Below, piece after piece: positions 5,305-22,624 of a stretch of 24,085 nucleotides of DNA. Under the pieces are notes generated by a model. That model made no database searches and was not told the origin of the DNA. It was given only the letters and a program-made list of their open reading frames with translations. The DNA lies in assembly GCA_031441445.1 (NCBI GenBank), contig GCA_031441445.1_4353.1; one strand, written 5' to 3'. Each line of letters starts with the position of its first letter. Position 1 is the stretch's first letter. This stretch comes from a phage. The position numbers were made by a program, and so were the translations under genes.

Positions 5305-5333
5305 ACTATACTAGTGAACTATTCACGCGTCAA
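5305..5333 (-). promoter_or_regulatory. early promoter with operator-like palindrome (TTGACG-N17-TATAGT, minus strand)
   Basis: -35 is rc of 5328-5333, -10 is rc of 5305-5310; the spacer contains TGAATAGTTCACTAG, a near-perfect copy of the recurring AATAG-N4-CTATT palindrome. Confidence 0.5.
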
Positions 5334-6970: not shown

Positions 6971-7215
6971 TTCTTCTCTCCTGCATAAGCGGACTTCAGG
7001 GTCTGCATTGCAGCGAACCAGAACGCGTCCGCAGGGATGCTATTGCTCAGGTTACTAACGGCGATGCGTGCCATCAGTTGTGCATCTTTGAATGCTTCGA
7101 TGTCTGTGATTTTCATTGGAAATTTACGCATAGCAACCGGGTCATTACCCATAGTCCATGCGATACATTTGGCTTCAAGTTCCTCGGTTATTGCGATTGT
7201 CTGTACGTTACTCAT
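6967..7215 (-). CDS. hypothetical protein (82 aa), first gene of the early operon
   Basis: ATG at 7215 with ACGGAG RBS; preceded by the promoter at 7249-7277. Confidence 0.5.
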   Translation of the reverse strand: MSNVQTIAITEELEAKCIAWTMGNDPVAMRKFPMKITDIEAFKDAQLMARIAVSNLSNSIPADAFWFAAMQTLKSAYAGEKK

Positions 7216-7248
7216 CTTCTCTACTCCGTTCTCGTTGTCGATGGAGTA

Positions 7249-7277
7249 AATATAATAGGGTCGTAGGTAATAGTCAA
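7249..7277 (-). promoter_or_regulatory. sigma70-like promoter (TTGACT-N17-TATATT) for the minus-strand early operon
   Basis: -35 is rc of 7272-7277, -10 is rc of 7249-7254, 17-bp spacer; about 30 nt upstream of ATG 7215. No operator palindrome in this copy. Confidence 0.5.
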
Positions 7278-7299
7278 CTAGTCATTGCAGAAAATAGAT

Positions 7300-7331
7300 A
7301 AAAAAAATCCCGGCTGGGTCAGGGCCGGGAT
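7300..7331 (-). terminator. rho-independent terminator (minus strand)
   Basis: 8-bp stem ATCCCGGC / GCCGGGAT (7307-7314 / 7324-7331) followed on the minus strand by eight U (A-run 7300-7307 on plus). Confidence 0.6.
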
Positions 7332-7364
7332 AAAACTGGAGAGCAGAGGTATGGAACAGGAGGT
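7300..7364 (-). ncRNA. candidate small RNA (about 65 nt) between promoter 7371-7399 and terminator 7300-7331
   Basis: Promoter, short ORF-free transcript and strong terminator in series; predicted RNA begins ...ACCUCCUGUUCC... (anti-Shine-Dalgarno-like CCUCC). Confidence 0.3.
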
Positions 7365-7370
7365 GATTTA

Positions 7371-7399
7371 AGTATCGTCGGATTAGTCTTAGGTGTCAA
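7371..7399 (-). promoter_or_regulatory. sigma70-like promoter (TTGACA-N17-GATACT) driving the candidate sRNA
   Basis: Perfect -35 (rc of 7394-7399), 17-bp spacer, -10 GATACT (rc of 7371-7376). Confidence 0.35.
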
Positions 7400-7526
7400 C
7401 AGAGATTCTCCGGCACGCGTTACCGCACTTTGGCTCGACCTTGTTACAGGTCCGCGAGGGTGATGATACCCGGAATTCCCTCAATGTTGTTTAATCTTCT
7501 GTTGCCGTTAGTCTATCAAACTACTG

Positions 7527-7559
7527 GCAAAATAAAACCCGGATTCGCGGTCCGGGTTT
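7527..7559 (-). terminator. rho-independent terminator after the lysis cassette
   Basis: 9-bp stem AAACCCGGA / TCCGGGTTT (7535-7543 / 7551-7559) with a 7-nt loop, followed on the minus strand by UAUUUUG; 38 nt downstream of the endolysin stop. Confidence 0.6.
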
Positions 7560-7596
7560 ATGGAGATGCAAGCACAAGCGGCGTATGACGATTATA

Positions 7597-8085
7597 TCAG
7601 CCTTTCACCGCGCGTCCAATAGCAACCGCCTCTTGCCACGGCTTACCGTCGAACAATGCCAGCCGCCCGGCGGTACGGCGGCGCAGGCCGAGTAACGGTT
7701 TGCCGTTCTGGTTGATGAACAGCGCCAGCTTAGCCCGCAGCGTCGCGATGTCACCAGAGCGCAGTGCCTTACCTGTACCGGTAGTAGCTGCGATAACGCC
7801 AGCGCCTGCGTTAAACACAAGGTCACACACGGCGTCGAACTGAGCCTGTGTCAGTGAGTGATGCGCTGCAGCGTCAACGGCGGCTACGGCCTTAGCCATA
7901 TCGCGATTGAGTAGCAGAAGACCCTGGCCGGGCGTGATGGTCTGCCCGGGCTTAACGTCTGGCCCGTAATGCCCGTAGCCAATAGTCAGGTACTTCTCGG
8001 CGGGTGTAGCACGATACGCAGTTCCCCGGAAGCCCTCGAACTCGGCACAAAAATGTAAGCCGTTATCTGAAATGTTTCGAGACAC
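7597..8085 (-). CDS. endolysin, GH24 lysozyme-like (T4 lysozyme / lambda R family)
   Basis: 162-aa ORF with N-terminal catalytic-region motif EFEGFRGTAYRATPAEKYLTIGYGH; GTG start at 8085 with a strong AAGGAGG RBS 8 nt upstream; follows two membrane-protein genes. Confidence 0.75.
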   Translation of the reverse strand: MSRNISDNGLHFCAEFEGFRGTAYRATPAEKYLTIGYGHYGPDVKPGQTITPGQGLLLLNRDMAKAVAAVDAAAHHSLTQAQFDAVCDLVFNAGAGVIAATTGTGKALRSGDIATLRAKLALFINQNGKPLLGLRRRTAGRLALFDGKPWQEAVAIGRAVKG

Positions 8086-9759: not shown

Positions 9760-9791
9760 TTCGTTTTCCTCTGTCTCGTCTGTGTAAATGA

Positions 9792-9820
9792 ATAGTAGCC
9801 TATTCTATCTTAGTGTGCAA
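9792..9820 (-). promoter_or_regulatory. early promoter cassette (TTGCAC-N17-TACTAT, minus strand) with operator palindrome
   Basis: -35 is rc of 9815-9820, -10 is rc of 9792-9797; palindrome AATAG-TAGC-CTATT at 9791-9804 overlaps the -10; whole cassette to the ATG is homologous to the one at 11022-11090. Confidence 0.5.
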
Positions 9821-11024: not shown

Positions 11025-11058
11025 TTCTAAATTCCTTATGTCTCGTTTCGATAAGTGA

Positions 11059-11087
11059 ATAGTAACCTATTATGTTGGGGTGTGCAA
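11059..11087 (-). promoter_or_regulatory. early promoter cassette (TTGCAC-N17-TACTAT, minus strand) with operator palindrome
   Basis: -35 is rc of 11082-11087, -10 is rc of 11059-11064; palindrome AATAG-TAAC-CTATT at 11058-11071. Confidence 0.5.
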
Positions 11088-14637: not shown

Positions 14638-14842
14638 CACCTAACGCCAGCCACTTGGCGTCTACTTCCAGAACTTCCGCCAGTTTGAACAGCGTTGCCG
14701 GGCGGACGTCCTGAGTTACTCCAAGTGCCAGTTGGTTAATCGCGCCCTGGGAAACGCCGGTCAGGGCCGCCAAACGGCGCTGGGAGATGCCGAGTTCTTT
14801 ACGGCGTTGTTCTACACGGGTGCCTAGTTCAGATGGTTGCAT
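14627..14842 (-). CDS. XRE-family (Cro/CI-type) helix-turn-helix transcriptional regulator
   Basis: 71 aa with HTH_3 signature GISQRRLAALTGVSQGAINQLALG; AAGGAG RBS; the only minus-strand gene inside the plus-strand module, with its own promoter and terminator. Confidence 0.8.
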   Translation of the reverse strand: MQPSELGTRVEQRRKELGISQRRLAALTGVSQGAINQLALGVTQDVRPATLFKLAEVLEVDAKWLALGEGA

Positions 14843-14872
14843 GTCAGTTACTCCTTAGTCAGTTGATATGTG

Positions 14873-14886
14873 AATAGTACCATATT
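14873..14886. promoter_or_regulatory. operator-like site O1 overlapping the XRE promoter -10 (AATAG-TACC-ATATT) with extended -10 TGGTACTAT
   Basis: Imperfect copy of the recurring palindrome; minus-strand TGnTACTAT (rc of 14874-14882) serves as an extended -10 for the XRE gene; the -35 is poor. Confidence 0.45.
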
Positions 14887-14906
14887 AATTATTTTAGAAA
14901 AGCCCA

Positions 14907-14935
14907 TTGACATGTGAATAGTTCGCTATTATAGT
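14907..14935 (+). promoter_or_regulatory. early promoter cassette (TTGACA-N17-TATAGT) with operator palindrome
   Basis: -35 14907-14912, -10 14930-14935; palindrome AATAG-TTCG-CTATT at 14917-14930 in the spacer; drives the operon starting at 14964. Confidence 0.55.
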
Positions 14936-17531: not shown

Positions 17532-17560
17532 TTGACACCTGAATAGTTAGCTATTATAGT
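17532..17560 (+). promoter_or_regulatory. early promoter cassette (TTGACA-N17-TATAGT) with operator palindrome
   Basis: -35 17532-17537, -10 17555-17560; palindrome AATAG-TTAG-CTATT at 17542-17555; drives the SSB gene. Confidence 0.55.
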
Positions 17561-21002: not shown

Positions 21003-21197
21003 ATGAAACACGAATATGACCGCAAGCCAGCACGTGACATCGTACCTGGCGACATGATTTTCAACGTTAAGACCCGCCAGCCTGTTGCCGTTGATACTGT
21101 GTTCGTCGAGTCAAACGGTAAACTGGTTATCGAAGATGTAACAGGCAACGTTACCGCGTTCGGGCGTAAAGAGCTGGTACTCTACGTTAAGGATTGA
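21003..21197 (+). CDS. hypothetical protein (64 aa)
   Basis: ATG with AAGGAATTGAGAAATG initiation region, downstream of promoter 20941-20969. Confidence 0.45.
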   Translation: MKHEYDRKPARDIVPGDMIFNVKTRQPVAVDTVFVESNGKLVIEDVTGNVTAFGRKELVLYVKD

Positions 21198-21199
21198 AC

Positions 21200-22624
21200 A
21201 TGTCTAAATTTATCCGTCGAGAGTACCAGAAGCTCATGACTTCGTTCATGCTGCAACACCCGCGCTGTAATATCTGGTGCGGAATGGGGGGAGGTAAAAC
21301 CTCCTCCACTATGTGGGTGCTCAACCGCCTGTTCCGCAACGGGCAGCTTACGGAAGAGGACCGCGTGTTAATCCTTGCCCCGTTACGTGTTGCGTCCGGT
21401 ACGTGGCCCGCTGAACAAGAGAAATGGCAATTCCCTTGTCTGCGTGTCGTAGATGCAACTGGTTCGGAGAAGCGCCGCATCGCAGCGCTGGAGTCAGATG
21501 CTAACGTGGTGTGCACTAACTACGAAGTTATCGAGTGGCTAATTGACTACTACGGCAAAGACGACTGGCCTTTTACGGTTATCGTTGCCGATGAAAGCAC
21601 GAAGCTTAAATCGTTCCGCAGCCGTTCGGGTGGTAGCAAGCGGGCAAAGGCGCTCAGCAAGGTTGCGTTCGGAAAGGTTAAGCGTTTCATCAACCTGACA
21701 GGCACACCGTCACCAAACGGCCTCAAAGACTTGTGGGGTCAGAACTGGTTTATCGACGCTGGCGAGCGCCTCGGCTCTTCGTACACAGCATTCACCGACC
21801 GCTGGTTTAACTCGGTACAGAAAGGTAAATCGGCTATGGCCCGCGAGTATCATGCACGACCGGGTGCGGATAATGAGATTCATCAGAAGATGAAAGACAT
21901 CAGCCTGACCATAGACCCTGCCGAGTGGTTTGGTTGTGAAGCGCCTGTTATCGTACCGGTGGAAATAGACCTGCCGAAGAAAGCGCGTCAGGCGTACATA
22001 GATATGGAGGAGAAGTTATTCGCAGAACTGGAGAGCGGGGAAGTTGAAGCGGCTAACGCTGCGGCGAAGACCTCAAAGTGCTTGCAGATTGCATCTGGTG
22101 CTGTATATGTATCCGGGCCAGACGGCGAAGCAACCAAAGAATGGGAGAAAGTGCACGACACGAAACTGGATGCGCTGGCGTCCATTGTCGAGGAGTTACA
22201 GGGTGCGCCGTTACTGGTAGCCTATCAGTTCAAGCACGAACTGGAGCGCGTCCTTAAGCGATTCCCACAAGCACAGGCCTTTGCCAAAGGCGCCAGGGGT
22301 AATAAGCAGATGGAAGCATGGAACCGCGGGGAAATAGAGATTTTGTGCGTCCACCCTGCGTCCGCCGGGCATGGTTTGAATTTACAGGACGGGGGTCATC
22401 ATCTGGCGTTCATCTCGCAAGGCTGGAACCTTGAGCACTATTTGCAGGTTGTTGAGCGCATAGGCCCAGTCCGCCAGAAACAGGCGGGTCACGAGCGCCC
22501 GGTGTTCCTTTATCACATCGTTGCTAAAGACACTCTGGACGAGGTTGTCGCCGCGCGTACCGACGAGAAGAAATCGGTACAGGAAGAGTTGCTTAATTAC
22601 ATGAAGAGACGAGGTAAGAAATGA
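21200..22624 (+). CDS. SNF2-like (superfamily 2) helicase
   Basis: ORF track 21194..22624 starts at TTG; ATG at 21200 preferred. Motif I CGMGGGKTSST, motif II VIVADESTKLK, motif V-like HPASAGHGLNLQ, motif VI-like QVVERIGPVRQ. Confidence 0.75.
   Translation: MSKFIRREYQKLMTSFMLQHPRCNIWCGMGGGKTSSTMWVLNRLFRNGQLTEEDRVLILAPLRVASGTWPAEQEKWQFPCLRVVDATGSEKRRIAALESDANVVCTNYEVIEWLIDYYGKDDWPFTVIVADESTKLKSFRSRSGGSKRAKALSKVAFGKVKRFINLTGTPSPNGLKDLWGQNWFIDAGERLGSSYTAFTDRWFNSVQKGKSAMAREYHARPGADNEIHQKMKDISLTIDPAEWFGCEAPVIVPVEIDLPKKARQAYIDMEEKLFAELESGEVEAANAAAKTSKCLQIASGAVYVSGPDGEATKEWEKVHDTKLDALASIVEELQGAPLLVAYQFKHELERVLKRFPQAQAFAKGARGNKQMEAWNRGEIEILCVHPASAGHGLNLQDGGHHLAFISQGWNLEHYLQVVERIGPVRQKQAGHERPVFLYHIVAKDTLDEVVAARTDEKKSVQEELLNYMKRRGKK

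Follow-up and report, generated by a model that had tools for sequence, protein, structure and literature searches.

A stretch of phage DNA 24,085 nt in length (contig GCA_031441445.1_4353.1 of NCBI GenBank assembly GCA_031441445.1; hereafter the window) was analyzed with respect to a short unit on its minus strand downstream of the endolysin gene. The unit comprises a near-consensus promoter (P1), a predicted 65-nt non-coding transcript (7300–7364), and an intrinsic terminator. The window is Kagunavirus-like, belongs to the subfamily Guernseyvirinae, and is 88–92% identical to many Escherichia coli phage records. Comparison of related sequences suggests, as the best-supported reading, that the unit is a real small non-coding RNA gene conserved across Guernseyvirinae, to which we assign a probability of roughly 0.5. 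The original prediction of a phage small RNA at this position, made from the window sequence, is upheld in that a discrete promoter-to-terminator unit behaving like a short-RNA gene was found: it occurs in 445 phage records, is conserved where synonymous sites are saturated, shows a conservation boundary at the predicted transcription start (+1), carries compensatory changes, and has a diverged homologue in a third lineage. Since no Rfam family reached its gathering score anywhere in the window, the RNA would represent a new family of a known kind.

Sequence elements of the unit

P1 consists of the −35 hexamer TTGACA (7394–7399) and the −10 hexamer GATACT (7371–7376) separated by a 17-nt spacer (7377–7393). 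This is the promoter that had been predicted at 7399–7371, and it matches the sigma-70 consensus at 10 of 12 positions. Judged from the position of the −10 hexamer, the transcript is predicted to start at about A7364, approximately 7 nt past it, reading ACCUCCUGUUCCAUACCUCUGCUCUCCAGUUUUAU, and its 3′ end is placed by the U tract. The 5′ part of 33 nt (7332–7364; 13 C, 13 U, 4 A, and 3 G) is G-poor and 79% pyrimidine, and contains the conserved blocks CUCCUG, CAU(C/A)CCUCU, and CUCC, with a U-rich GUUUUAU directly 5′ of the hairpin. The terminator hairpin (7307–7331) has an 8-bp stem, AUCCCGGC/GCCGGGAU, of six G–C and two A–U pairs and a 9-nt loop, CCUGACCCA, which contains the conserved CUGACC; it is followed by the U8 tract (7300–7307), whose first T closes the stem. 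Folding of the RNA gave no structure but this hairpin (−13.8 kcal/mol, z = −2.2), with the first 33 nt unpaired, in agreement with the strong intrinsic terminator of an 8-bp GC stem plus U8 proposed earlier at 7331–7300. The consensus terminator scan skipped the hairpin at 7331–7307 because its loop limit was 8 nt. The transcript was also free of ORFs (open reading frames), as had been claimed: no AUG, GUG, or UUG lies within the 65-nt RNA, and no ORF of at least 60 amino acids was found on the minus strand inside the gap at 7216–7596. ARAGORN returned 0 tRNA or tmRNA genes in the window.

A separate promoter, P2 (TTGACT-N17-TATATT; 7249–7277, minus strand), stands right after the terminator, where the original prediction had placed one, and precedes a block of small genes; calling these genes an early operon is an assumption. 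The −35 hexamer of P2 begins 23 bp past the U tract. The predicted 5′ untranslated region (UTR) of the P2 mRNA (7216–7242, minus strand) carries the ribosome-binding site GGAG, and the ATG follows at 7215. The U8 tract lies 58–65 nt upstream of the predicted P2 start, which is the position expected for an UP-like element, and it may act as such an element of P2.

The window contains approximately 11 promoter-like sites matching at 10 or more of 12 positions, and its promoter-like and terminator-like sites were as numerous as in shuffled sequence. Therefore, it is conservation and not the single-sequence pattern that takes the unit beyond chance.

Conservation and distribution within Guernseyvirinae

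The endolysin proteins of the window and of Salmonella phage SE2 are 76% identical; their genes agree at 17 of 51 four-fold sites (33%) and 44% of third positions, so neutral sites are essentially randomized between Kagunavirus and Jerseyvirus. For the same pair, the −35 hexamer of P1 is identical at 6/6 positions, the −10 hexamer is identical in a hand-checked, blastn-derived alignment (A1), and the spacer is merely 59% identical. Both P1 hexamers are invariant throughout A1. In the transcribed 5′ part, 26–27 of 33–35 nt are identical, including the blocks CUCCUG, CAUCCCUCU, CUCC, and UUUAU, while the U tract and the two hexamers of P2 show 100% identity and the hairpin with its loop is kept between the two genera. 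The 5′ UTR of P2 shows 91% identity, even though the first gene behind it differs from the ATG onward.

Diversity within each genus gave a similar picture. The nucleotide diversity of the transcribed part was 0.06 in Kagunavirus (n = 28) and 0.035 in Jerseyvirus (n = 11), compared with 0.47 and 0.29, respectively, at endolysin third positions, which is approximately eight times as high. In Jerseyvirus, a hypervariable stretch of 6 nt (diversity 0.47) separates the −10 hexamer from the predicted +1, where conservation sets in; a boundary at exactly this point is what a functional transcript would lead one to expect.

The hairpin was conserved as a structure. Stem cells were paired in 97.9% of cases across 24 distinct sequences, with one C–G to U–A compensatory position and one G–U, and a control in which stem partners were shifted by 1–3 columns cut the pairing to 23–50%. 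RNAalifold returned the identical single hairpin and nothing else, leaving the 5′ part unpaired. The loop sequence CUGACC is conserved, seemingly beyond the need of an ordinary terminator, and would fit a U-turn-like (pyrimidine-U-N-purine) loop. A run of 7–14 T follows the hairpin in all relatives, and the U-rich stretch on its 5′ side reads GUUUUAU in Kagunavirus, UUUAU in Jerseyvirus, and CUUU in Cornellvirus-type phages.

The 445 records were those matched by the 190-bp module that spans the unit and P2 (7400–7216), at least 80% of which was covered in 398. Its identity was 95–99% in Kagunavirus and approximately 75% in Jerseyvirus, and homology always started at the −35 hexamer. Pattern scans of IMG/VR for P1, P2, and the hairpin recovered the same 41–45 kb Guernseyvirinae contigs or their fragments, barring one chance match to the P1 pattern, and all loci found through P2 only that had sufficient upstream sequence also carried P1, the pyrimidine-rich tract, and the hairpin. 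Another two pattern hits, L141 and L142, were dismissed as due to chance. A covariance model (R1; 24 distinct sequences) found one copy per genome, scoring 98 bits in the window, 80 in SE2, and 37 (E = 1e-6) in phage GRNsp27, and detected no homologue in 51 loci of more distant terminase relatives.

A host origin or host copy of the unit was rejected, as blastn gave no match in 5,426 E. coli genomes, and so was a bacterial counterpart, as a scan of the genomes of 185,579 species with the hairpin pattern gave only Jerseyvirus contamination in one assembly. That assembly is assigned to Taishania pollutisoli (Bacteroidota; L064, NZ_JACVEL010000022.1). At least one of its scaffolds is plainly Jerseyvirus DNA with the whole module and looks like contamination, and two further short scaffolds matched the hairpin pattern.

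The GRNsp27 hit belongs to a diverged homologue that lies directly after the lysin gene in the Cornellvirus-type phages GRNsp27, FSL SP-031, and Shemara and in Enterobacter phage phiEap-2. In this lineage, the promoter has its −35 hexamer (TGGACG) within the last lysin codons and its −10 hexamer (TATACT) past the stop. The predicted RNA is approximately 50 nt long and begins AUAUUCCACCCAGCCAGCUUU; the hairpin, a U8 tract, and a counterpart of P2 follow. The stem differs from that of Kagunavirus at four pair positions and is still paired, and the loop of FSL SP-031 reads CUAACCC. The 5′ region is unpaired in every homologue, and the sequence blocks kept between Kagunavirus and Jerseyvirus are largely absent from the Cornellvirus-type phages.

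The outgroup siphovirus Haito_Bas83 has a terminator directly behind its last lysis gene, then a promoter (TTGACT-N17-CATACT) and a comparable 5′ UTR, and the junction contains neither P1 nor a pyrimidine tract. The terminator and P2 therefore look ancestral, and P1 together with the transcribed tract appears, from these sequences, to be an addition specific to Guernseyvirinae. Although Bas83 is an unrelated siphovirus, its 5′ UTR (AACCAATCAACGAGAAGGAGTAACAC; L222 43170–43270) resembles the P2 5′ UTR of the window (CATCGACAACGAGAACGGAGTAGAG), a likeness that suggests an exchangeable cassette of promoter and leader.

Lysis operon context and neighboring features

The minus strand of the window carries, in order, small genes, two holin genes, the endolysin gene (8085–7597), the intergenic region under study, approximately ten small genes of unknown function, the small and large terminase genes, and the portal gene. 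A PHROGs scan of 20 small proteins flanking the locus found no antiterminator, nearly all being of unknown function; the Pfam scan took in only six other proteins of the window.

In most relatives (30 of the 48 distinct contexts upstream of P1), the −35 hexamer of P1 lies inside or next to the endolysin stop codon (GGT TGA CAC, or TAG G TTGACA). Where the stop codon overlaps or abuts the hexamer in this way, the lysis mRNA contains the RNA sequence as its 3′ UTR, and the lysis operon is terminated by the same hairpin. A further 17 contexts, including the window, have 85–337 bp inserted exactly between the endolysin stop and the −35 hexamer, and at least nine of these insertions carry a terminator of their own. 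The insertion of the window is lineage-specific, measures 197 bp (7400–7596, minus strand), lies outside the conserved module, and has its terminator at 7559–7535. Despite such insertions, the block from P1 to P2 is undisturbed, with up to 99.5% identity. The module thus stays intact where a separate terminator has been gained upstream of P1, so that ending the lysis operon cannot be the sole reason for its retention. The original prediction had placed the RNA between two other terminators. The upstream one, right after the endolysin gene, is the terminator of the insertion; on the downstream side, none was seen before approximately 4838–4815.

The junction itself (7400/7596 in the window; loci L001–L062) is an insertion hot spot. 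In the window, the insertion opens a second promoter–short RNA–terminator unit (7529–7618, minus strand). Its promoter, TGGACG-N16-TATAAT with an extended TG (7618–7591), has the −35 hexamer within the last endolysin codons and is the positional counterpart of the Cornellvirus-type promoter; its −10 hexamer is not kept in phage Ivi. The unit would yield an RNA of approximately 56 nt, composed of ACGCCGCUUGUGCUUGCAUCUCCAUAA, the hairpin 7559–7535, and UUUUAUUUU. The remaining 135 nt of the insertion showed no significant structure (z = −1.35). A paralogous copy of the small RNA elsewhere in the genome was rejected, as the covariance model found none and the upstream terminator unit scored 12 bits (E = 0.8).

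The first gene after P2 (6967–7215, minus strand) is extended at its N-terminus in comparison with relatives, and only residues 29–82 of its product match phrog_2180. Many relatives start this gene at an internal ATGAAAATCACAGA (approximately 7113), and the first 100 nt of the window ORF are unique to a few phages. Elsewhere, the palindrome TGAATAGTnnnCTATTAT occurs six times in the window against 0.02 expected, at 5308–5325 on the minus strand and at 9789–9806, 11056–11073, 14871–14888, 14915–14932, and 17540–17557 on the plus strand. Three copies lie in the spacer and −10 hexamer of near-consensus promoters (5333–5305, 14907–14935, and 17532–17560). The palindrome looks like an operator for a phage regulator, and P1 and P2 are without it; the paper on phage fBC-Eco01 gives the same consensus as “phage RNA polymerase promoters.”

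Existing records annotate the locus in part. The fBC-Eco01 record lists a predicted promoter, a terminator, and a promoter, the record of phage Jersey has P2 alone as a predicted promoter, and the Schulenburg record has a terminator. In the record of phage Ivi, a coding sequence (CDS), ECPH5_11 (L001 3198–3314), covers the small-RNA locus as a 38-codon hypothetical protein whose start codon is the TTG within the −35 hexamer. This CDS is in all likelihood a false call; its counterpart in the window is the 26-codon ORF at 7399–7319.

Proposed function and competing explanations

From these elements, we infer the following course of events. Host sigma-70 RNA polymerase would initiate at P1. As the hexamers and spacing of P1 are the same as those of the lambda PL promoter, unmodified host polymerase should make the RNA once the DNA enters the cell, and the strong intrinsic terminator would halt it approximately 65 nt on. 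The Hfq-binding module of small RNAs is defined by a U-rich stretch, a GC hairpin, and a long U tail. The predicted RNA, with a single-stranded C/U-rich 5′ part, a U-rich stretch, a GC hairpin, and a U8 tail, has the anatomy expected of an Hfq-binding trans-acting small RNA; an 8-bp stem with U8 is found in the window and U7–U14 in relatives, and the U-rich stretch is present directly 5′ of the hairpin in all three lineages. In most relatives, the RNA would share the lysis-operon terminator in the manner of a 3′-UTR-type small RNA with its own promoter, and in the window the inserted upstream terminator would leave the unit free-standing. The single-stranded pyrimidine-rich part may pair with purine-rich host or phage mRNA, for which ribosome-binding regions are the obvious candidates. 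Such pairing would alter the translation or stability of the target, with the hairpin loop as a possible second contact.

Comparable arrangements are known. DapZ and MicL of enterobacteria are 3′-UTR-type small RNAs transcribed from a promoter of their own, which lies within the upstream gene or where it ends. The present unit is similar in that its promoter overlaps the 3′ end of the preceding coding sequence (in the 30 of 48 contexts), the mRNA terminator is shared, and the seed would lie in a single-stranded 5′ part. It differs in that a phage lysis operon and not a host gene is involved and in that the unit of the window is split from the endolysin gene by the terminator-bearing insertion. 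The best Rfam hit, RF02278 (Betaproteobacteria toxic small RNA), has similar UCUCC-type motifs upstream of a CCCGG/CCGGG terminator hairpin; the RNA is not a member of this family, scoring 25 bits (E = 0.014) against a gathering score of 50 in a match driven by the terminator.

Among phage RNAs, LPR1/PreS of lambda is bound by Hfq, has the operon terminator tL2a as its 3′ end, regulates dnaN, and acts during the lytic cycle, and lambda 6S RNA is also among the Hfq-bound RNAs (bioRxiv 10.1101/2024.10.31.621285). The predicted RNA resembles LPR1/PreS as a phage RNA of the 60–90 nt class whose 3′ GC hairpin and poly-U doubles as an operon terminator. However, there is no sequence similarity, and LPR1 was demonstrated experimentally in a temperate phage, whereas the present candidate belongs to a virulent phage, has its own near-consensus promoter, and is predicted from sequence. 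StxS of Stx phages, a short trans-acting RNA of 74 nt, arises by default from PR′, a late promoter subject to Q antitermination (PMC12197685). It is likewise a short, promoter-proximal, terminated phage transcript, and it regulates through Hfq-type pairing; unlike StxS, the present RNA has no recognizable antiterminator and is followed by a separate promoter after the terminator.

A more specific proposal can be formulated for all Guernseyvirinae, which we regard as rather improbable. The RNA would be an abundant riboregulator made from a promoter of lambda PL strength, and its 5′ end in Kagunavirus, AUCACCUCCU, copies the 3′ terminus of 16S rRNA. The RNA would compete with ribosomes for strong Shine–Dalgarno sites, or would use the 5′ seed and the U-turn-like CUGACC loop as two contacts, and in this way reprogram host or phage translation. 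The original prediction had similarly suggested that the C-rich 5′ end could act as an anti-Shine–Dalgarno-like sequence on GGAGG sites. This part is not supported: CCUCCU is intact only in Kagunavirus, being shortened to CUCCU in Jerseyvirus and RP180-like phages, and no initiation region stood out in both genera. The anti-Shine–Dalgarno mechanism is unproven and at best lineage-specific.

Several observations, including the results on phage targets given below, weigh against the small-RNA reading. The Cornellvirus-type RNAs are C-rich and G-poor and contain neither the CCUCCU nor the CCCUCU motif, so that either the seed is lineage-specific or composition outweighs sequence. The stretch from the terminator to P2 is conserved too, and part of the constraint on the module is therefore at the DNA level. 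Most IMG/VR loci were gathered by sequence patterns, which makes the invariance of exact motifs partly a matter of construction; the blastn-derived set (A1) and the P2-only loci are free of this bias and showed minor variants only, namely TTGACG for the −35 hexamer in a P2-only locus, CATACT for the −10 hexamer, and CUCCUUG. The searched literature contained no transcriptome of Kagunavirus or Jerseyvirus.

No target was found in the phage when the initiation regions of 35 ortholog pairs were compared between the window and SE2, as no outlier was shared, and the ribosome-binding region of P2 was no outlier either, ranking 13th among 44 initiation regions by duplex energy. Pairing with this region of the P2 mRNA (GGAGUAGAG...AUG), which by eye extends over 13–14 bp, was rejected on that rank and because the UTR variants UAAAC, UAUAG, and UAGCG are uncompensated in the RNA. 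The mRNA of an SNF2 helicase (21194–22624, plus strand) was the top gene of the window when compared with 40 composition-matched shuffled seeds (z = −3.9), and its ortholog was second of 61 genes in SE2 (z = −4.1). The complementarity lies chiefly at 22016–22060, 22296–22335, and 21256–21310. At the best site (22020–22050), synonymous changes were uncompensated in 45 paired RNA and helicase sequences, and the site is also present in Jerseyvirus, whose RNA is without the complementary segment; the helicase mRNA is unproven as a target and the signal is probably due to chance. A strong apparent target in SE2 (14782–14831) was rejected because it lies on the non-transcribed strand of a holin coding region.

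The most serious alternative, unlikely in our judgment but still carrying appreciable weight, is that the locus is purely architectural. The hairpin would serve the lysis operon as terminator and insulator, P2 would drive the operon that follows, P1 would be an auxiliary promoter, and the RNA would be a by-product without a function of its own; P1 might bring polymerase to the vicinity of P2 or recycle it there, or supply the P2 operon by partial read-through. The arrangement in Bas83, where terminator and promoter form an ancestral core without P1, agrees with this explanation, as do a terminator-to-P2 interval and a P2 5′ UTR as conserved as the RNA itself, the failure to find a target, and the poor conservation of the 5′ sequence in Cornellvirus-type phages. 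However, it leaves unexplained why blocks in an unstructured transcribed part are conserved where four-fold sites are saturated, why the hairpin loop is conserved, why conservation sets in at +1 after a hypervariable discriminator, and why a promoter is retained at the endolysin stop in three genera.

It is improbable that the RNA acts by binding protein instead of by base pairing, as an abundant, unstructured, C/U-rich and G-poor decoy with an Hfq-type 3′ end that titrates a host factor such as Hfq, ribosomal protein S1, or Rho. The near-consensus P1 makes high abundance plausible, and the three genera share composition (62–82% pyrimidine, 2–3 G) and architecture and not one seed, but the specific blocks kept within Kagunavirus and within Jerseyvirus go beyond composition. 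An antitermination cassette like the PR′–6S RNA–tR′ unit of lambda is very improbable. Under this reading, the short RNA would be made by default, with a phage factor permitting P1 read-through to the small, terminase, and structural genes. The strong promoter with a close terminator near lysis and morphogenesis genes and upstream of genes leading to the terminase recalls the lambda unit, of which 6S RNA is a known short product. In contrast to lambda, the unit sits after the lysis genes, its terminator is directly followed by P2, which is strong and conserved, and additional promoters as well as another terminator lie ahead of the terminase gene; moreover, no Q-like or other antiterminator was found among the 20 flanking small proteins, and no −10-like pause element (TAnnnT-like) between +1 and +25. 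A small protein gene, which the Ivi CDS spanning the stretch and the mechanically listed ORF at 7399–7319 would suggest, is excluded for practical purposes, as its start codon lies upstream of the predicted transcript and has no ribosome-binding site, indels between genera break the frame, Jerseyvirus versions contain UAG, UAA, and UGA, and the RNA itself offers no start codon.

Gene callers have placed a spurious CDS on this locus, and the records show at most isolated promoters or terminators. Regulatory small RNAs are well documented in temperate phages and prophages, but few are known from virulent coliphages. Many Guernseyvirinae are candidates for therapy or biocontrol, and phages Bas70–75 of the BASEL collection belong to the group. 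In the window phage, the insertion parts P1 from the endolysin gene, and the promoter can therefore be mutated cleanly. If the small-RNA reading is true, the whole subfamily, with Kagunavirus, Jerseyvirus, and Cornellvirus-type phages and several hundred sequenced isolates, would have a conserved RNA regulator.

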